Program-made: the position numbers and the translations under genes | In this document: piece after piece, positions 10,907-61,900 of the stretch | Layout: each line of letters opens with the position of its first letter | How positions within the stretch are numbered: position 1 is the first letter of the stretch | Assembly (NCBI GenBank): GCA_044892525.1 | Contig: CM097887.1 | Span: 10,912,001-10,976,000, forward strand | Reading direction: 5' to 3' | Length of the DNA: 64,000 nucleotides | DNA from: Schmidtea polychroa | Taxonomy: Eukaryota | Notes under the pieces: model-generated | What the model was told of the DNA's origin: nothing | Seen by the model: the letters and a program-made list of their open reading frames with translations, nothing else | Databases searched by the model: none

Positions 10907-11051
10907 TAATAATTCAATAAGATATATTTTTCAAAAAAACACTAAAACGAATATTATTCAAACAAAACTTTACATAACTTTTACAAAAGGAGTTTCAAAA
11001 AATCCTTTTTAAATAGAAAAGAAATCAGAGGTGAAAATGAAAAGAAGTTCT

Positions 11052-11163: not shown

Positions 11164-14100
11164 AGACCGAAAGCTTTGACCCATATTGGTGAGCACAATA
11201 AGGGCTGTAAGATTGAAATAGGTATGTCTGATTTTAAAATTTTATTAAAAAATTTCGATAATTATTGCGAACGTGTGATTTGTGAGGCGTTGTTGATAAA
11301 ATAATTGAATCCGAAAATTAATGTGCAGAATGCAGTAGATACTTGTGTTTTGAGTGTTTTTAATAAGTTTTTTATATTGTATGTATTGATTGTTGTATTA
11401 AATTAAATAATTAATAAAAAATTTTTTAAATTATTAAATTAAATTTTAAATGTTAAAATTTAAAAAAAATAATATATTTTTTATAAAATAAAAAAAATTT
11501 ATATAATTAATAAATTTGTTTAAAATCCTTAATTTAATGAGTTATAATATCCCACCGGATGATGACAGGAAAACTGTCGAAATTAATCGCGAAAAGAATG
11601 TTTGATTGGCGTTATCTTATAATTAAATCATTGCCATAAAATCATGTTTCTGCTGTTCCAGTATTCAAAAGATTATTGGAGACTTTTAATGCACTTAGAA
11701 GAAAAGAACTAGACATTTGTTTTCTTGAGACTTGTCTAGAAGAAAAGATGATTCCCTCGTTCATTTTTAAAATGAAACTTAGTGATTGTCTTTCAAGTAA
11801 AGATGTGCAAATAATACATAAAAGAACGTTAAGAAGAATGTTGGAATTAGAGAAGATAAGGAGAACATCCTTGGATAAAAAACTATTGAATATTGGATTT
11901 ACTTTGAATCAAATAACAAATGAGTTTTGTTTGCAGGTATGTGTTGAATGGTGTATTAAAAATTCAATTTCTCAGTTAAAATCAAAAGAGAATGCTCATA
12001 TCAATAAATTAAAAAATTTGAGAAAATTATTTGGGATCTCTAAATTTAGTGTAGAGAATACATTAATAAACATGAGTAAAGTTGTTTTGTCTGAAGAGGA
12101 GGAGCGTATTTTGAAATTTGGTCCCAATCATTCCATTAAGAAAAGAATGGATGAAACAAAATTATGTGCGAAGATTGAAAGTTTATACTTTCATATACTT
12201 AGATCGATGAAGGATATTAATACTAATTATGTGAAGAGTGTGTTGAGTTCGAGTACGATGGAGTATATTGATAAAAATTAAAAGCAGAATATTTAAGATT
12301 TTACTGTATTAAAAAATTTAGCTAAAAAAGACATCAATATATGCAAGTTTGACAAAGGAAATGGATTGGTAATTCTCGACCACAATGTATATGTAAATAA
12401 GCTTTGTGATGTTTTGAACGCTCCCCAGTTTGTGAAAATAGAGATTTCTCGAAAAAATGGAATACAGCCTCCTCTTAAGGAGGAGAATTTGTTGAAAGAA
12501 ATACTAAATAAATTAATTAAAAATAAGCAAATTGATGAAGAGTTGTTTAAATCTATTCGCCCAATGGGATCACAACCATCAAAAATGTGTGGGCTTCCAA
12601 AAATCCATAAAGATGGCGTGCCTATGAGACCTGTTTTATCCATGATTGGCACTGCCCAGTAAAAAATAGCCAAAATTTTGGATGGATTATTGAAACCATT
12701 AATACGATCAGAATTTGAATGTAAAGATAGTTTTGACTTTGTTTCCTGTATTGCACAATATGATAGACAAAGTATGGATGAAATTATGGTTTCGTTTGAT
12801 GTCTGTAGTCTGTTTACTAATGTACCATTGGTTGAAACAATTGAATTATGTTGCTTGTTATGGAATGAAAATATTTCTGAACATCATATTTTGGATAGAA
12901 CAGCATTTCGTGAACTTCTTGTATTTGCAACTTCAAAAATCAATTTTCTTTTCAATAATGAATGGTATCAACAAATAGATGGAGTTGCTATGGATTCTCC
13001 TTTAGCACTAACGATGGCTTCAATTTTTTTAACAAGCTTAGAAAAGAAAATTGCATCTTTCCAATGTATGAAACCCACTGTTTATAAACGGTATGTGGAT
13101 GATATTTTTTTCTTATATTTGAAAATCAGAGGCATGTTGACCCGTTTTTGCATTATATGAATAGTCTACATAAAAACATTGTATTCACATGTGAAACGGA
13201 GAAAAAATCATCGCTTGCTTTCTTGGATCTGTTAATACAACGCAAAGAGAAACACTATGAGACAGAGATTTATAGAAAACCAACTGATACTGGTCTCTAT
13301 ACTTCTTCCGAAAGTTTTTGTGAATTCAAGTATAAAAGAAATATGGTGAAAGGGTTGATTTATCGAGCATGGTCTTTGTCTTCTACTTTTAAAAATTCAG
13401 TAAAAAGTGTTGATATATTGGTTGAATTGTTAATGAAGAACGGTTATTCAAAATCCTTTTTAGTAATTATGGTGAAAGAGACTGTTGACAAATTTATTAA
13501 AAATCCTAAGGATCCATGTTTGAGAAAATCTGGGTGTGATCTTGTTGAGGTGTGTGAGTCTGATGAGTTAAATAAATTAAATAGTGTGAGCAAGGATGAT
13601 GAGCCTAAATTTGTGTTAGTATTGTCGTACTCAGAAGGTTTTAAGGATTATAAAGTGAAGATAAGAAAGCAGTTAGGGAATTTAAACTATAGGATAGTAT
13701 CAACTTCATGGAAAGTACGCAATATGTTTATTAATAAGTCAAAAACTCCGGTTGAATTGTGTTCCGATCTCGTTTATCAGTTTACATGTAATGAGTGTAA
13801 TGCCACATACATTGGAGAGACTTCCCGTCATCTCTGTATTCGAGCTCGAGAACATTGTAGACCGAAGGTTTTGACTCATATTGGTGAGCACAATAAGGGC
13901 TGTAAGATTAAAATTTATATGTCTGATTTTAAAATTTTATTAAAAAATTTCGATAATTATTGCGACCGTGTGATTTGTGAGGCGTTGTTGATAAAATAAT
14001 TGAATCCGAAAATTAATGTGCAGAATGCAGTAAATACTTGTGTTTTGAGTGTTTTTAAATAGGTTTTTTTATATTGTATGTATTGATTGTTTTATTAAAT

Positions 14101-45567: not shown

Positions 45568-48500
45568 TGTTGGGCTGAGTCGAAAATTTAATCGTTGAAA
45601 AATAGGAAAGTAGGGAAGTAGAACATTAAGAAAAATAATAATAAAATAAATAAAATCAGAAATAAAATAGAATAAGATATAAGGAAAATAATAAGTAAGA
45701 CATAAGAATTAAAACAAAAAATAAAATTAAGAAAAGATTAAAATAGAACAAGTTGACAAATAAATAAAGAGGAATTCAAGAAATAATAAGGAAATTAAGG
45801 AAATAAATAGAAAAACATATTAAAAATAAAGAAAATAAGGAAAAAACAACCTAAAAACAAGAAAATTATATTAAATTAATAGAAATAAGCGGTACTCAAC
45901 TCTGATTGGTCCGCACAAATAAGAATTTGATATATATACAACTACCAAAAACATTAAATTTACTGTTAACCCCGAGCATTTCATAGGTAAGAAAAATGTT
46001 TACTGTTGTTTACGGTTAACCCCGAGCATTTCATAGACATCTACAACTCACGGAGACTTATTTCAAGGATCAGCAATACAAGTAGAGCAACAGTTAATTC
46101 GAAAAACTTCACAGCAATTCGAAATCAGTCACAGCAATCGACATTCAACGAACCATCATCAGACTAATTTGGAACGACTAACGTTAATTTTCCGATTCAG
46201 CCTAATTCCATAGTAAGGGATTTTTATTTATGATATTGTTTTTCGAAGTTAATAGTAAATATGTATATTTAATGAGCAATTAAACTTTTAAATTTAACCA
46301 GACTCTCTTTTCATTTGGTCCTGAATAACGATTTTGATAAAGTAAATAATTTAAATGTTTAAAAGTATTTATTGGTAACAGGTGAACTCTTACATAATTT
46401 TTATGGATATTTATTTTGAAGTGATAGTTTCATGATTTCTAATATTAACGAGAAACGTGGCGTTGAGATACTCCATGTCATGGTGTGAGGTGCCTTCGGG
46501 AGCTCAGCCGGTGGACATGGAGTATTTCAATCACGCAGCTAGATTGGGCCGAAATGTGAAGGCTTCTTCACGGGTCCAATTGCTGAAGGACTTAAAATCT
46601 GTCAGAGTACCGAAATATAGACCGAAAGGAAACCTTCTGAAAGTTTCGAAAATAGGATATGTGCTTCACAGCGACTGAGGGAGTTCTCATATTAACTCTG
46701 TATTGTCCAGAGTCGTCTTACAAGACATTCATGCCACTTCTGTCTATAAATCCGAACTTACCATGTGGGGGAAAATACCATTAAACATCCATCGCTGGTT
46801 TTCTAACATATCGAGAAGTTGAAATTGCATTCGGTAGATTTTTGAAAAAGTAACTCTAATTTAGGTCATCTCTTTCAGATGCGACATCCAAATCTTAGCA
46901 TATGATGAGGAATTTACAATAAAGGAAAAGTAAAACATAAAACCACAATAATACTGTATTCAATCACATATATTAACAAAATCTGGTAATACCCATTGAA
47001 TAATTTTCATGCTGTTGCGTCGAAATATCCACTACTGAAATATGCTTCATAGAGTCTAGTTGGCTGGTTCGTAGAGATCTCCCATCGTTCAAAAGCATCC
47101 AATATTGAGGAAATTACGAGTCGTAGTAAATAAATCCGACATCATAAGCTCAGATGGGAATCGACACGCGATGTAACATTTGCAGTTCGCTCAGTACGGT
47201 TGATAGTTACAGATAAAATTTCCATCGAATAGGCACCCATACATACAGACATACTGCTAACATAACTATGAGTAGCGTCATCCGGTCAGAAATATGCATG
47301 AGAAACAGCAGAATCATTCCGAGTGCCTCTCACCGCAGGGAATGCCGCCATGTGTCACCCTCTCTAGGATTCTTAGTGTGTGAGTAGTAATCAGTGGTCC
47401 TATTAGATAATGCTGACATGAGATGTGACTTCCAGATGACTGACTCTTAAATTTCACTACTGATAAAGGCCATTCGTACCACTAAAAAGATAAGCCAAAT
47501 AACCAGTAACCGACTACTAAGATAAGGGACTCTCTAAAGTGCACCCATTAAAGATAATTTTGCTTAAATTAAATATGCTAAATAAAAATCGAAATTGTTG
47601 AAGGGGTATTTTAATTAATAATCGAAAATTCAAACCAAACTTTATAACTAAACCATAGGAAGTTTTACCTAAGTGTTGTAGAGGTTTATCGTAATTCTAA
47701 TTAGATGTTACAAATAATAGTAGTAGCCTTCGAGCCAAATTTAAATTAACTAAAGTATCTACAGGAATTTTTGGGTTATAAAATAGCTAGTAATATTGTA
47801 GTTAAATTTCTCATATTCCCTGTAAATGACGTATTGTAATAGAAAACTAAATCCGATAACAAATTATTATGTAATTACAATATTTTTACGATGCTATATT
47901 TCTACGACGATATCACCGTATGGTATGGATAAGGGGTAATCATAAAATAGTGACGTATAGTTTATACGAAATTACGAGTTGTTACTTATTCCGCTACTTG
48001 AGGTAAGGGTGCAAGTTTTTACTAGTTGCATTTGGTCCAAAAACCTTATTTTGCATTAGAATAACAACAAATAATCAGCGAAATTTAAACGAAGTGTAGT
48101 ATAGTGTATTTGTAATGAAATAGGGTTATTCGCTCCGGCATGAATAAATCCGTAAATTGCCTTTATGTGCGATAGATAGAAATCCAACTCGAACGCGATA
48201 GACGAAAATTAAAATTTTTACAAATAATTTGCATTCGTCAGGGAAGCAATCAGGGCGTTGGGGAATAATTTTCTGTAAAGGATACGTAAAATATTAGTAA
48301 TCAAGGGTGAAGGGAGGGATCCTGTTTCATCGACTCGTCTTGTTTTCTTCCAGCACTAAGTATCCAATAGCGAATAAACCGTATATCTGATCCGAAATTT
48401 TTGGATATAGTCATCATAGTTTTCTTCTTTAGCCATCCATATGTTATCAAACCACAAATCAGCTCTACGTCCCTGCTTCTCCTGCTCAGATAAAAATGCA

Positions 48501-49727
48501 GTGATTAAAGATCTTCAAGCCCAGATCGGTCGATATAAACGAAAAATCGACGAACTGGAAGGGACATGGTTTAGTCCCGCTCGGATGAAGGAGATCCAAA
48601 AGAAGCTCGATCGTAGCGAGCATTGCCGGGACGCGCTAATATCTGAGAGCCGTGCCCAAAGAAGTCTAATCAGAGAACAATCCGAGGCACTGCATAAGGT
48701 TTACGTGCAGGCGGCTACAACCCGAAAAATAGTGCAGATTCCCATCCGAGAGGCCGATGACATCTTTCCGCCTCATCACAACCTTTCCTCGAATCCATCT
48801 CCACCGTTCAAGAGACCGTGCCAAGACTGCGTCGAAAACGAATTGTCCCCCAAGCGACCAGATGTTGTCGTCACGGGTACCAGTAAGCCCCCCACTGCTA
48901 GTCCATCTGTATCAGTCACCCCTCTGCAAGTGGCATCTTCAAGCAAACCCAAGCGCAAACAACTCTCTCGTGCAGAGCGCAAGAAGAGACAGCGCGAACG
49001 CGCCACTACCAAGCCAAACATCCCATCAATAGAGGACTCAACCAACGGTGGCAACTCTCACGTGTCCATCGACCTAACAACGGGACCCTCAGCACGAATC
49101 ATATCAGCCGCTGGCGTAACGTGGGAAGAGAACGCTTCCGAGTTTTTTAACCTCGACGAATTATTCGCCGACGCTGAATGGGAGAAACAATAGAACCCCA
49201 GTGGCGGTCAGGACGAAGAACAAGGATCCGATCTATGTTGATTATGATGTTTTCTCTTCTTTCGACAAACATTAGTAAAGTGTACAGCTGAATCCTTGTG
49301 TCATAACGTTGAAATTAATAAATCTTGTTGTCTTACACGTTTTCGTTCATGAATAATTAGACTTTAATTAAGTGGGTTGAGTAGAGAACCCGCCAGATCT
49401 AGTGAGAAATTCCCAATTTGTATTCAGCGAATCCTGATAAGTGGTTGTGTAAGGAAAAGGACGTAAGCCCTTCTAACGGCAGTCGTGAATGGGAAGTCGA
49501 GGCCTCAGCAAGGAGTAGTTTTAAGGCAGAAGCTCACCTGCTTGCTGGCGTCTCGCCTGCATAGTGCAGTACCAACGTGAAGTGATTCACGGGCACTATG
49601 TTGGAAGAAAGTTATGTGGGGTTTCACTCCAGGTTGACAAATCGGTGGCACCTTTTATTCGAGATGGACAATCAACCCTTAGACCCGTCAACATGGTAGA
49701 GTGGTCAGCCGAGGTGTAACCCCAACA
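45568..49727 (+). repeat. Candidate 5' LTR, 4160 bp
   Basis: Starts TGTTGGG and ends CCCAACA (perfect 7-bp inverted termini, TG..CA); PBS 7 nt downstream; AATAAA at 49317-49322; partner LTR not in window. Confidence 0.7.
48441..49193 (+). CDS. LTR-encoded protein of unknown function (250 aa; CxxC, coiled coil, basic patch, acidic/aromatic tail)
   Basis: Intact ORF with higher GC than its flanks; preceded by TTTCTTCTTTAG (48421-48432), followed by AATAAA. Confidence 0.65.
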   Translation: MLSNHKSALRPCFSCSDKNAVIKDLQAQIGRYKRKIDELEGTWFSPARMKEIQKKLDRSEHCRDALISESRAQRSLIREQSEALHKVYVQAATTRKIVQIPIREADDIFPPHHNLSSNPSPPFKRPCQDCVENELSPKRPDVVVTGTSKPPTASPSVSVTPLQVASSSKPKRKQLSRAERKKRQRERATTKPNIPSIEDSTNGGNSHVSIDLTTGPSARIISAAGVTWEENASEFFNLDELFADAEWEKQ

Positions 49728-49734
49728 TGATTTT

Positions 49735-49752
49735 TGGGGGCTCAGCCGGGAT
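49735..49752 (+). promoter_or_regulatory. Primer-binding site, tRNA-Pro
   Basis: TGGGGGCTCAGCCGGGAT, 16/18 to the classical tRNA-Pro PBS TGGGGGCTCGTCCGGGAT. Confidence 0.85.
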
Positions 49753-50065
49753 CTACAATCGATCGAAATTTCTATTAACGAATGCGAAATTCACCGGGAT
49801 TTTCATAAAAAATTAAAGGGATTTATCACATCGATTTTCTGTTTTCGACCGACCATTGCTTGACGAATGCCAATTAACTATTGATTATTAAATTATATTA
49901 GGAACTAAGTAGAGAAAATCAAAATGTAGATAATAGAAAAATTAAGGATATAAATAAAGGAGATAAAGTAGTCAAATTAAATAATTAACAATGGTTAAAG
50001 AAACCAATTAACGAATTAACTATTAATTTACTACATATTATTAAAACATTACTTTTCCAACAGCT

Positions 50066-50551
50066 ATGACAGAATTCGCGAACCAAATGCAACAACTGCT
50101 CAAGTGGATCGATATAGAAAACGACTCCCTAACAACACTGACGCATAAAAGAGAAAAAATCAACGCGATATTACTGCAAGCAATCGGACAAACACCAGTC
50201 GTACCTAATCATATGATATTAGCCACAGGCCTAAGTCGCCCAGATGGAAAAATAAACCCCGAAACCGTATATCAGTGGTATCAAGAGAGATTGAACCACC
50301 CAACATTAAATCTAGATTATCAGCGTCTAAAAGACTCACTAAATACAATACCAGATGCAATCGAACAAAAAATACAGGAAAAAGTTAACCAATTACGAAC
50401 TTGTATAGCCTGCAAACTCCGTCCTATTCGCGTATTATTCTTGCCGTGTGGACACCTCAGTCACTGTGAAGAGTGTGTAAAAGACCTAAAAAGATGCACG
50501 ATGTGCAAATATGAAATAAAAGAGACCCATATGGTCTATTATGGCGAATGA
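50066..50551 (+). CDS. RING-finger protein (IAP/MDM-type C3HC4_3 RING at the C-terminus), 161 aa
   Basis: CIACKLRPIRVLFLPCGHLSHCEECVKDLKRCTMCKYEI; acceptor-like TTTTCCAACAG just before the ATG; AATAAA at 50656-50661. Confidence 0.85.
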   Translation: MTEFANQMQQLLKWIDIENDSLTTLTHKREKINAILLQAIGQTPVVPNHMILATGLSRPDGKINPETVYQWYQERLNHPTLNLDYQRLKDSLNTIPDAIEQKIQEKVNQLRTCIACKLRPIRVLFLPCGHLSHCEECVKDLKRCTMCKYEIKETHMVYYGE

Positions 50552-51129
50552 AACGGCCGGCGATGTAACAGCAAGTATACGATGTTTGAACAAGAATGCA
50601 TGAAATTGTTGAGGTAACACGTACTGTTAATGATTCAATCTTTATGTTTATGATAAATAAATTCGTCTTTAAAAAGTTTTGATGATTAGGACTAATAAAA
50701 TTTGCATGACGAATGAATATTTGCGTGTTTGTTTTGTTTTATTTTTTTTTCGGAATCAAATGAAGAGAGGGTTGAATAACGTGGAATTAGTCCCAATATA
50801 GACTGCAGGGGTACAAACCGAGCCACCTTCGGGCGGTACGTCTTATTGTAAGAACCCGTTGGGAGGGGATAACTGATCAACCCAAGTAAGAAGCGTAGGG
50901 CGGGGTACCATCGCATATGATGAGAAGTTTTTGCGACATGACTGATCACCATGCAAATGTAGAAATGGATCATCGCGATCGTCGTGCGTTTTGAGCAAGG
51001 GGGGAAAGGGGAAACACTCCCAAGCGGTAAAGATTAAGTCGACAAATTAAAAGTAGATAGAGAAAATGGTAAACTAGAGTAAAAGAAGAAAAGAGAAATA
51101 GAAGCATGCAGAGCGAGGAATATTAAAGC

Positions 51130-51719
51130 CGAGCTGTCGAATAATCCAGCCGGTCAAGGAGGAAGATTGAGCTGTTGAATAGTGCCAGCCAGTCGTAAGG
51201 TCGAGTTGTGAAAAAGTCCAACCGATCAGGAAGGAGGAAGATTGAGCTGTTGAATAGTGCCAGCCAGTCGTAAGGTCGAGTTGTGAAAAAGTCCAACCGA
51301 TCAGGAAGGAGGAAGATTGAGCTGTTGAATAGTGCCAGCCAGTCGTAAGGTCGAGTTGTGAAAAAGTCCAACCGATCAGGAAGGAGGAAGATTGAGCTGT
51401 TGAATAGTGCCAGCCAGTCGTAAGGTCGAGTTGTGAAAAGTCCAACCGATCAGGAAGGAGGAAGATTGAGCTGTTGAATAGTGCCAGCCAGTCGTAAGGT
51501 CGAGTTGTGAAAAGTCCAACCGATCAGGAAGGAGGAAGACTGAGCTGTTGAATAGTGCCAGCCAGTCGTAAGGTCGAGTTGTGAAAAGTCCAACCGATCA
51601 GGAAGGAGGAAGATTGAGCTGTTGAATAGTGCCAGCCAGTCGTAAGATTGAGTTGTTGAATAGTCCAACCGATCAGAAGGAAGAAGATTGAGCTGTTGAA
51701 TAGTGCCAGCCAGTCGTAA
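51130..51719. repeat. 74/75-bp tandem array, 8 copies plus a degenerate lead-in, in the element leader
   Basis: gagctgttgaatagtgccagccagtcgtaa recurs at about 51170, 51245, 51320, 51394, 51468, 51542, 51616 and 51690. Confidence 0.95.
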
Positions 51720-52975
51720 AGGCCTAGAAAAGCGAGAGATAGCAGTTAAGCTACAATGAGATAATATTTAAATTACTAGTGATATGGAATATTAAAGCTA
51801 GCTAGAACAAATTGAATGTAATTTTGAAAATTCGAGTTTAGAGAGGAAATAAACGAGCTCGTGGAAAAGAAAATAGGATTATAATGAAAAAGGAAAGGGA
51901 AGAAGGAAACGAATTAAAGAGATAATAGAAAATAAAGAATAGATGAAACGATGATAATGAGTAAAGAGGAAAGTAACTAACTAACTAAAGGGATCCCAGT
52001 GAAGTAGAGAAACTCTACGGAATATTTTTTTTGGTTAAACCGGGAAAATGCATTTTATTGGTTCCAGAGTAGAACCGAGCGTAATAATAATGAATATGAA
52101 AAGTAAAATAGCGACAACAGCGCAAAAGGATTAGGAAAATGAAAGGGGGGTAATAAGCAGAGACCGACAACGACCTATTTTTACTATAATTGATAACGAA
52201 TAGATAATTATTACGACTTTATAGATAATTGTTACTACCCCATATAGATAATTTAAAATCGACGGAAAATACGGGCTGATGGGATATTATAACCCGCAGA
52301 AAGGATTTCACAAAAGATAGGGGAAGCACAAACAGAAACCTAAAAGGTGTCTGTTTTTGAACGTTGTAGAAAGAATGATGAAGTCGTGTAAGCAAATGCA
52401 ACACGAGATCATTTTTTCATTTTAGATATCAAGCCAATCCAGCCAACCAAGACAATCCAGAACCTGCACAAAAGGAATTCGAAGAAATCGACAATCAACC
52501 AAGGATAAATCCATTCAGAACCCGCACCGAGAGACACAGCAACCGGAAGACTCCCGAACGGAAGAAGTATTAGCAGCCATCTGCCAAGGATTAGAAACAC
52601 AATCAGAACCGAACGCGACCAATTCAATAGCCGCTAATTACCAAGAAGCGTAAGAAAGGAATCACGGATAAACCCAATCTTAGATCTTCAAGTAAGCCAG
52701 GAGACGTATTATTTTCAGGAGACGAATTACAACAACTCAAAAGAGGACGATCCATTAAACATCAAAGAGGAATATCACAAGGATCCAGAAGAACCAATCA
52801 AGTACCCATATTTGACCAAGAAAATCTCGGATATACCCCTAGTCGATCTCGAAGTAGAGAAAGTCTGTCCGATATCACTAATAGTTTAGCAACGTCAACC
52901 GAAGAATTATCAGCCCAAAGTTTAGTCACATCGTTAGACAATTTAAAAGAAACAGACGAACCTAGAACACCAATC

Positions 52976-55900
52976 ATGACGAATGTCGTAAAAACCGACG
53001 AGTATAAAGAGAAGTTCAGAGGAGAACCGTTCAACGGAAATGCAAACAAGCTAGCAACGTTCATAACTAATTTTGAAGTTTATATCACTGTGTGTGGATG
53101 GACACCCGAAGCAATTAGTAAAAGGATGCCGTTGTTTTTGTGCGATAGTGCATTAGAGGTATATTTAGAAGCTAAAGAGAGAGACACGAAATTAGAAAAG
53201 TGGGAAGATATTAAAACATTCCTGAAGAAAACCTTCGGAGCCAGTAAGCCAATCAACCAGGCGTTGGGCGAACTAGCAAATAGGAAACAAAGAGCAAACG
53301 AATCGATAACATTATATGCCAGTGAATTGCGGAGATTAGCGAAGAAAGCAATGAATGGAAAATTACCCGAAGAAAATCTGATCGGTTATTTCATAGAGGG
53401 ATTACGCCGAGAAGAAGTAAGAGCCTCAGTAGGTTGTCAAATGTGCAAAACATTAGAGGAAGCCATAGATTGGGCTACAAGATGCGAGCTCCACCTTCCA
53501 GCTCAAATGAATATTATGCAAGAGGAGGGAAGGATAGCGACAGCAATAGCGAAAGCGGATAACGGAGATAACAACAATCAAGAACCGAAAATGAATCAAT
53601 TTATACCAGGAGCGCACCAAATTTTCAAACCACCACAAGGACGATCAAACGGGAATAATGGTAATCGTAACAACCCGAATAATGAGAACAATTTCAATAA
53701 TCGGCGAAATATGAACGATAACAAGCAGTGCCGAACATGCGGTAAACCAGGACACTGGGACAGAGATTGTTATAGAAATTCAAATTGTAATCGTTGCGGA
53801 CGGCGTGGACATACCGAAAATGTATGCCAATTGCGAGGCTGTTTTAACTGTGGTCAGCCAGGTCACATCTCCAGAGATTGCCGAGAAAGGGGCCAACAAC
53901 AACGACCACCACAGCGAAATAATAATTGTATAGCGAATCCGCAACGACAAAGTAACCCTAACGAAGGAAAACAAATGAACGTTATGCAGGAAATTTCGCA
54001 GATGAAACAGATGATGCAACAAATGATGAGACCAAGACAAGAATCAGCACCACAACAAACCCAGAATATACGTATGATGAGGAGTACCGAAAATCTCAAC
54101 AATTATGAAGTGCATCAACATGTACAAGAATGGCAAAGGCTACAGGCCGAGGAAGAGAGGATAAAACAAGAACGCAACCAACAACGACAAGAACAACCAT
54201 TGCGAATAAATATGATGAAGTTAGTAAAAGACATGAAGAGCCAGTATTGCTACAATTACGGGAAAAGCCCAAGGGTAGTACCCACGACTGAACCAGAAAA
54301 GGTAAAAGAAATAACAACGGAAATGGAAACAGAGAATTCAACCACGATTTTAAAAGGAAACCAGAGAATTCAGAAAATATTCTGGAAAAAGATAAAGGAT
54401 AAAATCGAAAAAGAACATAATAAAGCGAAAACCGAGACAGAAGATGAAAATAACAAGAGCAAGGAACAAACCAGTCAACTAAACCACCAAATGCTACAAG
54501 AATCAGAATCAGAAGAAACAACAATATTCGAAAGAAAGAAACTAAAGAGAGTACCAAGGATGAGAAACTTGCAAATCAATATGATGAAAAGGACAAAAGA
54601 TGTAGCATCGTCAGACGAAGAAGAAGATTATGTAAGTAGTTTGGGTGGAGAAATACTACAGCCGAATGAAATAAGCGAACCCCCAAAAGGGGAAATCAAA
54701 GAGGAAGAAAGCGGAAACGAGATAACCAGTGAAAGTGAAAACGAAGATATCGAAATAAAGTTGAGAAAAGCAAGGGAGGAAGCGATAAAACAGGTAGCCG
54801 AAATACTCCCAGTAGTAGTGAGAAACCAAGAGTTCATCGACGTAATACCATTCAGGCGATTCGTGCAAAAAGTGATGAAATTGGAAAGAAACGAGAAAGA
54901 TCTAATACCAAACGAGGAAAAATCAATTATAAAAAATTATATGGAAAAAATGAAGCAGGCCGATACCACGCGGTATGTAATAAAAATTGGAACGAGTAGA
55001 GGACTTGAAAGAATGTGGATAAAAAATACAGTCACCGACGAACTTTTCGATTGGATACGAGAGCATTTGGGAAGTTCGAGAAAGAAAGAATATCTGTATC
55101 AATACCAAGGAGAACAGATCAAACCAGATATGCACTTAGTAGATGCACTAATATGGCCAGGAGAAACGCAAATACTGAAGTTGCATAAAGAAAAACAACC
55201 AGCCAACCTTTACGATTGGGCTAAAGATGCCAAGGCAGAATATGATTTTAATATCAAATTGAAATTAGAACAAATAAAACAATGTACTCTGAGACGAAAC
55301 CTGGATAAGCTGATCAAACAAATTCAAGAACAAGTAGAAGACAACTGGGATTTACTCATCACCAGACGAGCCCCAGCCATGTACGAACTAATGAGCCGGT
55401 TGCGAGATACAGAAATGCTCCGAATGAGTGATTGGAGAACCATAAATTTGATCCACAAATATGGAAGGTTAAAAGAAACCCAGCCACAGAGGTTAGAAAT
55501 AACCATATGGTTACCGAACGAAGAAAAACGACGAATAAAAATGAGCAATCAGAGTACAGTAGATGACTTGGTATCAAAAATAAACCAAGAGATAACGGAA
55601 AAGGTACGTAGCGAAAGTAGTGATGGTATGGTGGATGATGTAGTCATGATGTACGATAAGATAATATTACGAGCGGAGGACGACACCTCGTTAAGCGAAA
55701 TGGGTATGTGGGACAATCACCAGATAATCAGGATAGTACCAATGGATGAATTTCGAACAAGAGATGTAACCTATCAAAAAGAAATACGAGACCGGATGAA
55801 AACGTTATATCAAAAATCTACGGAAATAATTAAAATCCACCAACAATGGTTAAAAGAAAAAGAACTACAAGGAAAAATCACGAAATTAAGCACCAGATCC

Positions 55901-58900
55901 TGCAGACGAACCCCATGGGAAAGAGTGTGGAATGCAGAAAGTAAGGAATGGGAAATCCGGAAAGGAACCTTCGTGGAAACAGACATTGGTGAGACAGAAA
56001 GTGAATCGGAGGAAGAAGAAGAGGAACCTCCAAAATATGAAGAGGAAGCAAGGGAACAGACATCAGATGACGAAGGCGAGACGGATGTCACATCAGAAAG
56101 CGAAAATGAAGCGAGACATATTCATGCAATGAGGAAAAAGGAACGTGAATATGCTGATATGGACGGCGAGGAAGCGACGGAAGCAAGAGAACGAGAAGAG
56201 AAAGAAAGATATAAACAATTAGGCGATATCTTAGCAATGGGAGCGAAAAATCAAAAACGCCAAGTAGTAGCGTTGGCTAACATCATCTTAAAGACATCAG
56301 AGAATATCCACAATCTGAGAGGAATGGCAAAGGCAATAGAGGAATACCGGCAATATAATGAATGGTATCCAGAACAGCTAGAACAAATTATTCGAAAATG
56401 GAGAAATCAGGAATGGGCACAAGACACCCAGGAGAGGTATCACATCCGAATCAAGTATCCGGACAAGAGCATCGAGGAACTAGAGGTGCATCCAACAACA
56501 AAAATTAGAGAATTAAAAAAGAAATTAGCATATGAAACTCCATTCCATCTGCAACTGTTCGGAAAATCACTAGACGATAATGCAGACGTCGGGATAACAC
56601 CCATGAGATTGGAAGAGACAAATGTATTAACAATGGCAGAAACGTTGGGAAAACCGTTAAAAAGGAAAAGTAAAATTATTAAACCAACAAAAGGCAGTTT
56701 GAGTACTCCAAGTCCGAACAAAGCACCAAGTAAATCTAATGAAACTGAAGAAGTTGAAGAGATAATCCTGGAAGATAGTGACGATGAACCAGGAGAAAGA
56801 TCACCGCTATTAGTGAGATGGCCGACAGGAGCCGAAATGTGGACTAATAACCAGCCATCAACGAGTTATCAACAACCAACGAAACTGAACATCAAAGAAA
56901 TCATCGACAATACTACGGAAACCGAAACGGATGAACAATTCCAGAAGCAAAGAGAACCAACGAAAGTAACACCAGAAAGTCAAACCGACAAAATAATAGA
57001 CGAATGGAATGAGTGGCTAAGAAATAACGATAGCTCATTACCCAGAACGGATAACGAAAGAAATCCGAATTACGAAAATACCAGAGAAGCCGGAACGATG
57101 ATGGAAAAACGGGCAAAAGGAAGACCGAAGAAACAAGGAGAAAAGTCTGAGTTCAAAACCAAAGAACAATTAAAGCAAGAACAAGGGCAAGTTCGATTAG
57201 AAAAATTGGATAAAATAGTATGGGATCTAAAGGAAGCCCAACCAACGATCGAAAGAGGAGAAAAATGGATACGAGAATTGTTAAAAGATATGTTAATAAT
57301 AACAAACCCACAACTTAGACGTTTGTGGCAACGGAAAGTAGCCAGTACGGAAGCTAGACAATTATGGCACACCATTTCGGGGATAATCCCAAAGTTAATC
57401 AAAGAGAAAACGAAAACCACCAAAACGGATTGGGACGAAACAAAGAAAGTGATTGAGCAGCTCACGACAAATGCAAACGATGACGAACATCACCTAGTGG
57501 TAATCACGTATTTGATGTATAATTTGATGGGACTAGCTGCGAGGAAAATACCAAATAAACAATTTGCAAATCATGTGGAAATGACCGTTTCAATCATAGA
57601 GAATACTATTGAACCACATATTATTCGTGCCGGAGGATGGAAAAGACTGATACAAGCGCCACGGAAAAATGAGCAAGAAAGGTCGATGCAAGTTAGATTG
57701 AAAAAACTGTTAAATGAACTAGAATGGGAACTACCGATGAAAGATCCCGCAAGCAGAAAAGCATCAATAAATTCGTTAATGATGACTATGATGATATGGA
57801 TGTTGTGCACAAGTGGAGCAACGGGTTTCACCATCTACGATTGTGATAACATGATAATGAGAGATAAATACTCATTGAGAGACATAGAAGAATGCAGACA
57901 AGCCTCACCCAACAAATTGGACATCGTGAGAACAAAAGTTACTTACCATGTATATCAAGAATCAGACTTCATCAGAACGCAAGCAAGGGAATGCGTAGTA
58001 TCAAAAAAGGTACTCGCATATTACTGTGGACAATATTCGTATTCGACTCTTATACTACCCGGTCTGGATAAAGAAATCGTATCAATACAACGAGAGGATT
58101 GTAAAGAGCTATTTAGAACCGGAGCGCTAAAAATGCATAACGGAGTGACAATTCACGGACAAACTGGAATGATTAAAACCGAAAGTGTTTACGTATCCGG
58201 AAAAGTAAAATCATCAGATGGGTCATGTAACGGGGGGACGTATACGATCCGAGGCGAGGTAATATCGGGAGTTGTAGTGATCGAGTCTTACACGGTCGAA
58301 TTAAAAGAATACGAAGCGCAATTTGACGCAAATAATTACCAAATGAAGACCAACCCAGCGTGTAAAGCTACAGAAAACGTATGCAGGACAGGAGTATCAA
58401 CTATAATCTATGAAGCTAATACCCAAAAATGCCGACTCCAACTGTTAAAAAGTGCTTTGTTCAATGAAGTAAAAGGAGAAATATATGAGAACGAGAACGA
58501 CGAGGATGGAAACGACAGAGTGAGAATGCGAAATGGAAAACCAATGCCACCATCTCCCAGAGAAAAGAGACTTTCAACGCAGAAGACACCAACAGCATTA
58601 ATCACAGACGATCCAGATCTAGGTATGAGATTTATCAAAGAGAAAGAAACCACCAAATGTGACAGTATAGTATATAAAACCAATTACGCAGGTATCTACA
58701 TGTCGAGACAAATAATCGATAGAGCAGTGGGAAAGATAGCAACGGAGGACGTAAAACTATACTTATATGCAAATAATAAAATGGATTTTCTATTTCATCG
58801 TGGACAAACGACCTTGCAAAAAGTATATTACGATCTGATACAAAACGATTGTTCATTGAATAAAGAAATATTGAAAACAAAGCTAGCTATTGCGATAACG

Positions 58901-61900
58901 CACCCCGATAACACGATGCCATCACTCCCATTACCAGATGGACACTTTGGTAGAATGGTAGGAGAAGTGATGTACACATACCAGTGTACCAAGACGTATG
59001 CACGAATGCCAGAAAAATCCATACTACCCGAAAAGAGATGTGCAAATGAATTAGAAATTCGTTATAAAGGACAAAATCGATTCGTCCAACCAGTCACTAG
59101 AATTATGAATCCAGTGGGTTTCTACCCAAATCTCTTTAACTGTTCTAATGCATACGGACCTTTGTATGAAAGACCCGATGGGAAATGGATGATGTTACCG
59201 GGAAAAACCATATCCGAGGAACCCAAGAAATTTGGATTAATAGAACTCGCCACAGAGCTGGATTTCAAACCTATAGACGTGTCAAACGGTGGTATGTATT
59301 CCCCAGAAGATCTAGAAACAGCACGACTTAACGTACTCTTCCCAGCCAGACGAGAATCCATTTTGTCTAATATGGTCACAATAACTGGGGGCACAAACTA
59401 TCAATCAGGCCCGAATTACGAGCTGCTATTATCGCCAGACCATTTTCAACAAGCTACGTCAAACATGATGAAAGCAATGTGGGGAAGATTCTTAGTTTTT
59501 GGACAAATGATGGCCGGGATATTAGGGATCATACTCATAATTCAGATAGTCAGAGTAATACTAACACAAATGTTAGCTTGTTTCGATATATACAAGCGGG
59601 AAAAGAAAGTTAATTGGAAAATGATAGTAGGTTTCTTACCATTTTTAGCTAAGACCATGGTATTACATGGCCACTCAAAAGACATCCATCGGATAAAGCG
59701 ATTGATAAAAATATTAACAAAGATTAAAGGAACCGACGAAGAAGTAGGCAGACGATTCCGGAAAGTAATGTACGATGAAGCAACAAGACGACAATTGAAA
59801 AAGAATAAGCCAAAATTCTTGGACCGATTTAGAAGCCAATCATCTAACAGCGATAGTGACGACGATGATAACGGGAACGATAAATGTCTTTATCCAAACA
59901 GAAACCCAAACGAAAAACCAATGGAAACGGCACCATATTGGGAAAAGGAAAAGACAAACACCTGGATCGCCAATGGAAGCTATATACCACCGGATATCGT
60001 GGGACCACAAACAGCTTTGACCATGACACAAAATATGTATCCGCAATTACCGAGTCAACCCGGTATGCATTATATGCCAACACGACGTACCAAAAGTGTA
60101 GATCAAGCAGATGACGTAAGAACAATAGCAGCGATGAGTTTACCTGGAGGTCCAGCAGTGACAGTCATGATCCAAATCAATGGTAAAGAAACCAATGCTA
60201 TGATAGACACAGGAGCTAATGTATCGGCGATAGCGATTAATCAAATTCCCAGTAAACACTGGAAAGATATCGAATCAACAACAATTCACATCATAGCATG
60301 TAGTAAAGAAACAGTGGACGTGGTCGGAAGATGGTGGACTACATTGAGATACCAGGACAACGAAATTGAAACGTATTTGGCAGTAATACCAAAACTTAGC
60401 GTACCATGCATAATCGGAACGGATTTGATGCCAGAATTGTTAAAAGAAGTCGTAATTGACTTAACAACCATGTGTTTAAAAGACAAAACCGGTAGAATAT
60501 GCAAAATGAATGCAGTCATCAGATGTCCAGAAAAAATAATAGTACCAGCAAAATCGCAGATGATTTGTCAGATAAAAGTGGATACGGGTATGGAAGGAGA
60601 AGTTATCTTTGAACCAAGCAAGTCATTCGAAAAGCGACGAGAATTACCACTCGCAAGAGAAATAATCACAATAAACCAAGAAGGAGTGATACCGCTCAAC
60701 ATCACGAATTTCGAAGAGGAAGACAAAATCATTTATGAGAACGAAAAATTGGGAAGATTGACCCCAATGATGGACATAGAATTACCGAAAGTGACCAACG
60801 AGATGATCAAAGATGATGAATTATGGACAATGGATAGTATGTTGTTGACGAATGATGAAAAGAAAAAATTGCACCGATTGTTGGTAGAATATAAAGATAT
60901 ATTCGCCATCTCAGACTTAGACTTGGGTACATGCGATGTTACCCTACATGCAATACCCCTCATAGATGAAACTCCAATTGCATTAAGACCATACAAGCTA
61001 GCAGAAATGCAAAAAGAAATAGCCGAAGCAGAAGTACAAAAGATGCTAGACGCAAAAGTAATCGAACCAAGTTGCTCACCCTGGCAATTCCCAGTGGTCA
61101 TGGTAAAAAAGAAAGATGGCACCCAACGATTCTGTATCGATTATCGGAAGTTAAACGCAGTGACCAAGAGAGATACCTATCCATTGCCGGACATCAATGA
61201 GATGTTATTGATGTTGCAAGGGGCAGCATATTTTACTTCTCTAGATCTAAAAAGTGGATACTGGCAGATTAAAGTCAAAGATGAGGACAAAGAGAAAACA
61301 GCTTTCACGTTGGGACGAGATCTATATCAATTCAGGAAAATGCCATTTGGACTGACTAACGCACCAGCATCATTTCAACGGTGTATGAACTTTGTCACCC
61401 ATGGAATCAAACAATGTATGGTATATATTGATGATTTACTAATCTATTCAGCGACATTTGAACAACATCTAGAAGATATCCGAAACGTATTTATTAGATT
61501 AAGACAGTGGAAACTCAAACTCAAACCATCAAAATGCGATTGGGCAAAGGAAAAAGTCACGTTTTTAGGACACATAGTGTCAGCTAAAGGAAAGGAGCCA
61601 GATCCAAGAAACATTGAGAAAATAAAAACATGTCCAGCACCGAAAACTGTCACCCAAGTTCAGGAATTTCTAGGATTATGCGGATACTATCGCAAATTTA
61701 TCAAAAATTATGCAGGAATTGCAAAACCAATCCAGGAACTAGTAAAGAAGGACATTTCGTTCTTATGGGGGAAGGAACAACAAGAGGCGTTTGAAACGCT
61801 GAGAGACAAACTAATCGAAGCACCTATCCTCGTACACCCAGATTTTAAGAAGCCATTTCTATTGGCAACGGATGCAAGCGGGTACGCGGCAGGCGCGATT

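Follow-up and report, generated by a model that had tools for sequence, protein, structure and literature searches.

What is a viral-type glycoprotein doing in the middle of a retrotransposon polyprotein, and what could it do for the element that carries it? The question is raised by a 64,000-nucleotide stretch of the Schmidtea polychroa genome (GCA_044892525.1, contig CM097887.1, positions 10,912,001 to 10,976,000; hereafter the window, in whose coordinates positions are given), where a reading made from the sequence alone had pointed to a chuvirus-like fusion glycoprotein (G) lying intact ahead of the protease in a single Gypsy polyprotein. We consider it likely that the G stretch serves as the envelope gene of a Burro-type Ty3/gypsy element that is young and present in many copies, and that it encodes a predicted class III fusogen that would allow the element to leave one cell in an enveloped particle and enter another.

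The layout can be observed directly. A single open frame runs from 52631 to the end of the window and closes 2,829 bases beyond it, giving 4,732 amino acids (aa) from stop to stop, or 4,617 aa from the first methionine at 52976. A Pfam scan of this frame found Retrotrans_gag (E 1e-9), CCHC knuckles, Monjiviricetes_fusion, aspartyl protease (PR), reverse transcriptase (RT), RNase H (RH), integrase (IN) and ankyrin. Together with weaker ubiquitin (Ub)-like and Bcl-2-like stretches, the order is Gag, Ub-like, Bcl-2-like, G, PR, RT, RH, IN and ankyrin. G occupies aa 1709-2340, with Gag upstream and PR, RT, RH and IN downstream in the same frame, so its placement intact between gag and pol is confirmed. 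The interval between PR and RT holds a conserved stretch, at the position of the dUTPase-like part of Burro, that matched no Pfam family up to E 1. At the far end of the polyprotein, a second signal-like segment (aa 4400-4418) and a transmembrane (TM) segment (aa 4668-4686) lie past the window (L011:2828-3688); this pair would form a second membrane protein, in a region that shows purifying selection but no Pfam match.

G matches the Monjiviricetes/chuvirus-type family PF24664 with E 8.2e-73 and 245.9 bits, against a cut-off of 27, and this was the only Pfam family that it matched at E up to 0.1. Its identity to the G of Tacheng tick virus 4 is 24% over 604 aa, and the viral proteins nearest to it, in sequence as in structure, are glycoproteins of the chuvirus and chu-like type. 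The chuvirus relationship proposed in the sequence-only reading is thus supported by the profile search, and the cysteine pattern noted there is found as described: YDC (Cys 1738), SLRDIEEC (Cys 1755), Cys 1788 and YYCG (Cys 1799) are all present, and each of the 14 ectodomain cysteines is retained in at least 90% of 103 aligned relatives. The ectodomain has one N-glycan sequon, at 59138. A signal peptide and a C-terminal TM helix had also been proposed, and both have counterparts elsewhere. The signal, called by hydropathy only, is hydrophobic but modest (aa 1715-1727, mean hydropathy 1.62 over 13 residues), with a small-residue cleavage context after it and a predicted mature start at 57827. 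Across 14 polyproteins, a hydrophobic segment before the mature N-terminus and a TM helix are found in 14/14, and the second, weaker hydrophobic segment in 13/14.

The fate of the proposed furin site is different. The motif REKR is present exactly at 58559-58570, one of three R-X-K/R-R motifs in the whole 4,732-aa protein. However, it does not hold as a feature of the family: among the ectodomains of the 14 polyproteins it is the sole such motif, and it lies in a loop modelled with low confidence (predicted local distance difference test, pLDDT, 58-64). The motif is probably incidental, and furin cleavage is probably not required. The furin site has also been described as not always conserved in gB-type Env (PMC13524379).

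A class III fold had been anticipated for G, and the structure prediction agrees. The AlphaFold model, folded as a monomer, has a pLDDT of 88, retains the class III ectodomain in full together with the long central helix, and resembles both chuvirus G and herpesvirus gB. In the structural comparison gB scores best, and Bourbon virus Gp and Chandipura virus G follow at lower ranks; the solved-structure sequences matched by G are likewise all gB (38/38). The prediction for G is therefore a membrane-fusion protein of class III (gB/chuvirus-like). G resembles the G proteins of Jingchuvirales/Monjiviricetes (PF24664) and herpesvirus gB in its cysteine pattern, its length, its signal-ectodomain-TM layout and its predicted fold. 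Unlike them, it is embedded in a retroelement polyprotein, and it is distant from both: identity is 22-28% in comparisons with viral G, and about 10% in the structural comparison with gB.

The family is young and multi-copy. The 781-Mb genome contains 128, 141 and 114 exact occurrences of 20-mers taken from gag, G and RT, respectively (reversed controls, 0), which corresponds to about 114-141 near-identical copies, and the 40 best-scored matches to the G DNA are 99-100% identical. Because the 20-mer count of G is similar to those of gag and RT, G is not preferentially lost. Among the 20 next-best copies by G similarity, 14 retain the whole 4,732-aa frame, three carry a frameshift, one carries a stop and two are partial. 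Distinct variants in the G ectodomain, relative to the window copy, comprise 41 synonymous and 3 non-synonymous changes and 1 stop (ratio of non-synonymous to synonymous variation, pN/pS, 0.020; p 3e-24), and G is under strong purifying selection. The ratio is 0.064 for Gag, 0.109 for RT-RH, 0.015 for PR, 0.18 for the Gag-G linker, 0.06 for the Bcl-2-like part, 0.13 for the G-PR spacer and 0.13 for the C-terminal second membrane cassette, and the G signal has 3 synonymous and 0 non-synonymous variants; as the copies were picked by G similarity, the synonymous excess is reliable and the ranking of G against the other domains is not. The genome holds a second family, with a G that is 35% identical, a 3,334-aa frame, the same domain order and a Bcl-2-like match at E 0.011. 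Among the database relatives scanned, G stands in frame ahead of PR and/or RT in 10 of 19.

The element that carries G is 30,454 bp long (30.45 kb) and starts at 45568. Self-comparison of the locus shows two long terminal repeats (LTRs) of 4,160 bp with TG...CA ends and 0 differences, the 3' LTR lying 7.9-12.0 kb beyond the window end. The primer-binding site (PBS) is an 18-nt match to tRNA-Pro(TGG), 7 nt from the 5' LTR. The PR-RT-RH-IN order, the gypsy-type RT/RH and IN domains, the paired LTRs with their target-site duplication and the tRNA primer site identify a Ty3/gypsy (Metaviridae) element; no BEL-type Pfam family was found in the Pfam scan, which returned RT_RNaseH, Integrase_H2C2 and Retrotrans_gag instead. 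More precisely, this is a Burro-type giant planarian Ty3/gypsy retroelement, by a comparison made with the published description of Burro and not with its sequence. Like Burro/GYPSM1 as described (PMC6431247), it exceeds 30 kb with long LTRs, encodes one large polyprotein near 4,800 aa (range about 4,800-5,100) whose Gag has three CCHC knuckles, and has an env in frame between Bcl-2 and PR with matches to mononegavirus glycoproteins. It also shares Ub/SUMO-like and Bcl-2-like parts (both matches are weak here), ankyrin repeats, and RING and MATH/TRAF cargo. The two differ in polyprotein length (4,732 aa here versus 4,873 aa) and in the TRAF gene (RING + MATH), which is a separate downstream open reading frame (ORF) here, whereas it is inside the polyprotein in Burro1 and upstream in the D. 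tigrina element.

The gag-G-pol in-frame layout is thus real but already published, and the view that it is unusual does not hold. According to a 2019 review, the env of the planarian Burro elements sits in frame after gag and before pol (PMC6431247). An eLife paper describes elements of the order GAG-ENV-POL with an HSV/gB-type ENV from Nematoda, Bryozoa and Platyhelminthes, and S. mediterranea has six of these (PMC13524379). The present element shares with Smed_errantivirus_1-6 a Ty3/gypsy Pol, the GAG-ENV-POL order, a gB-type class III ENV, intact multi-copy elements and a variable furin site. Its G matches none of the six printed Smed domain I-II sequences, the nearest by eye, at about half identical (an estimate that was not computed), being Smed_errantivirus_5. 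In the portions of that paper that deal with the six elements, LTRs and PBS are not listed, and its main text does not use the words "polyprotein" or "in-frame"; here the LTRs, the tRNA-Pro PBS and the single frame are all seen. The value of the locus is therefore incremental, the architecture being striking yet in print. What it adds is one more young family, whose LTRs are identical and whose primer site fits tRNA-Pro; direct evidence of strong purifying selection on a G that the family has not shed; and an independent argument for class III, where the 2019 review had read class I, with a furin motif that appears incidental.

How G would be made from the middle of Gag-Pol can be proposed from the order of the membrane segments (Table 1). 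One polyprotein of about 4,600 aa would be translated, and its Gag, Ub-like and Bcl-2-like parts would emerge in the cytosol. The segment before G would then act as an internal signal, after which host signal peptidase would cleave; the ectodomain would enter the lumen of the endoplasmic reticulum, form up to seven disulfides and trimerise. The TM helix would stop transfer and leave PR-RT-RH-IN cytosolic, tied to the G tail until released by the protease of the element, and this topology would require the second hydrophobic segment to remain on the cytosolic side. The yield of Gag, G and Pol would be about 1:1:1, all on one membrane, which would also be the site of particle budding. It is quite possible, and we propose it tentatively, that these elements are working enveloped reverse-transcribing viruses built from one membrane-threaded polyprotein in a flavivirus-like manner, with Gag on one side, the Pol enzymes on the Env tail, a fixed 1:1:1 ratio and no furin step. 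Should this processing hold, it would reveal the way in which a retroelement obtains a secretory-pathway glycoprotein from within Gag-Pol and the means by which elements of this kind might pass from one planarian cell to another. Loss of PIWI is reported to derepress BURRO1 in differentiated planarian tissue (PMC8532177). As the present family is young and strongly selected, topology and fusion are directly testable in a regenerating, stem-cell-rich animal.

Most retroelements do not make Gag, Env and Pol in a constant 1:1:1 proportion, and this would favor a scheme in which G is colinear in the DNA yet expressed apart, splicing or an internal promoter yielding a G-less Gag-Pol message and a separate G message. 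We regard this as unlikely, since the parts are joined without an intervening stop or frameshift in 14/20 copies, the linker, the Bcl-2-like part, the spacer and the signal are all under purifying selection in that same frame, and the in-frame fusion is retained in relatives with 25-44% G identity.

Selection shows that G has a function, not which one. G could be made and selected for a non-infectious role, either fusing neighboring cells or internal membranes or mainly anchoring Gag and Pol. The element also carries the second membrane cassette and apoptosis-related cargo, and the Discussion of PMC13524379 calls the entry mechanism of gB-type elements unknown. We find such a role quite unlikely: an anchor would hardly need the whole class III ectodomain, the 14 cysteines and the long central helix that are kept here, and the family has lost G no more often than gag and RT. 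An envelope function in exit and entry remains the reading that we prefer.

The sequence-only reading had pointed to the reported capture of chuvirus-type G by BEL/Pao elements in mosquitoes, of which Anakin, a BEL/Pao element with a Chuviridae-like glycoprotein, is a published case (PMC7642597). The present element resembles Anakin as an LTR retroelement with such a glycoprotein inside its LTRs, and differs from it in being Ty3/gypsy and not BEL/Pao. A recent capture of the same kind would agree with the chuvirus and chu-like proteins being the nearest viral relatives of G. However, G is just 22-28% identical to viral G, versus 25-44% identical to the G of other retroelements. A maximum-likelihood tree was built from 24 G proteins (unrooted; with a long-branch warning for P0028). 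In it, a long branch with 100/100 support sets the 14 G proteins of retroelement polyproteins apart from the 10 others, which are chuvirus, stand-alone or linked to a BEL-type domain; the retroelement proteins thus form a clade of their own apart from the sampled chuvirus and stand-alone G. The lone BEL-type-linked relative (P0055, with DUF5641), in which G follows that domain, falls in the other main clade. Congruence between the G and RT trees extends to a single split: the RT tree of 7 elements, with the envelope-less gypsy element at window 6540-10930 as outgroup, has one well-supported split (P0015 with P0017), and this recurs in the G tree. The separate retroelement clade and the shared split fit an old association between G and the element better than a recent capture, while the tree fixes neither donor nor direction. 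Ancient acquisition of gB-type ENV is also favored in PMC13524379, and clear capture by Gypsy elements was not found in the arthropods surveyed in PMC10084718. Recent capture is accordingly very unlikely. Finally, the idea that the env is of class I, of the gypsy/baculovirus-F type, comes from the HHpred match of Burro env to gypsy Env (96.7% probability, section 7 of PMC6431247) and is extremely improbable here, where the profile, solved-sequence and best structural matches described above and the model itself contradict it and where the eLife table gives ENV_HSV as the type of each of the six elements from S. mediterranea (PMC13524379). An F-type (class I) errantivirus Env identity was rejected on this positive gB-type class III assignment.

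The remaining parts of the element are collected with those of the polyprotein in Table 1.

Table 1. Features of the element within the window, in order of position.
Feature	Position	Strand	Remarks
Target-site duplication GTAA	45564..45567	.	recurs right after the 3' LTR, outside the window
5' LTR	45568..49727	+	4,160 bp
Open frame within LTR	48420..49193	+	257 aa, no family match
Primer-binding site	49735..49752	+	complementary to the 3' end of host tRNA-Pro(TGG)
Accessory ORF in leader	50045..50551	+	C3HC4 RING finger (PF13920, E 3.7e-11)
Tandem repeat in leader	51124..51719	+	period ~75 bp
Polyprotein frame	52631..64000	+	first Met 52976; runs past the window
Gag	53129..53884	+	Retrotrans_gag capsid domain, three CCHC zinc knuckles
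Ubiquitin/SUMO-like stretch	56444..56548	+	weak, E 0.005, below cut-off
Bcl-2-like stretch	57419..57640	+	directly before G; weak, E 0.04, below cut-off
Internal signal sequence of G (predicted)	57773..57826	+	
G ectodomain, Monjiviricetes/chuvirus-type	57827..59470	+	predicted class III (gB-like) fold, 14 conserved Cys
REKR furin-like motif	58559..58570	+	variable loop, unconserved among relatives
Transmembrane helix of G	59507..59563	+	aa 2293-2311, hydropathy 2.53
Second, weaker hydrophobic segment	59621..59671	+	with Gly/Pro; would lie on the cytosolic membrane face
Aspartyl protease	60164..60439	+	DTG at 60206
Reverse transcriptase + RNase H	61103..62155	+	YIDD at 61424
Integrase	62477..62995	+	zinc finger + core
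Ankyrin-repeat region, start	63845..64000	+	continues beyond the window

After the polyprotein, the complete, separate TRAF-type ORF (L011:4387-5823) has RING, zinc fingers, a coiled coil and MATH (E 7e-27); it is followed by two coiled-coil ORFs and then by a small ORF with signal-like and TM-like segments (L011:7980-8636). Pfam scans of the element gave no match to a BIR domain. No clear purine run that could serve as a polypurine tract was seen by eye in the 260 nt before the 3' LTR (L011:8600-8861), although the LTRs are identical and the family is young. The genes for tRNA-Pro(TGG), the would-be primer of the element, form a tandem array with a 475-bp period (L056-L061; G000:C1 near 130.90-130.95 Mb), and the tRNA-Pro 3' pattern has 2,186 matches genome-wide.

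Several relatives and neighbors deserve mention. Four G-bearing polyproteins from metagenome assemblies (P0163, P0002, P0005 and P0016) have serial aspartyl-protease-like domains, with up to 7 matched stretches in P0163. A G-PR-RT-RH-IN polyprotein (P0007) carries the label hypothetical protein in a Flavobacteriaceae metagenome-assembled genome and is likely animal DNA binned into a bacterial genome. In P0139, immunoglobulin domains are fused before a Monjiviricetes-type glycoprotein in one 1,000-aa protein. Within the window, a gypsy element of ordinary make lies on the minus strand at 6540-10930; its two frames encode Gag knuckles and PR, RT, RH and IN, and no match to an envelope was found in it. 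A 298-aa frame at 13103-13999 has a weak GIY-YIG match (E 0.004) and is possibly a Penelope-like fragment. Just past the 3' LTR, on the minus strand (L012:6697-8563), lie two frames that we take to resemble exons of a tyrosinase-type host gene.

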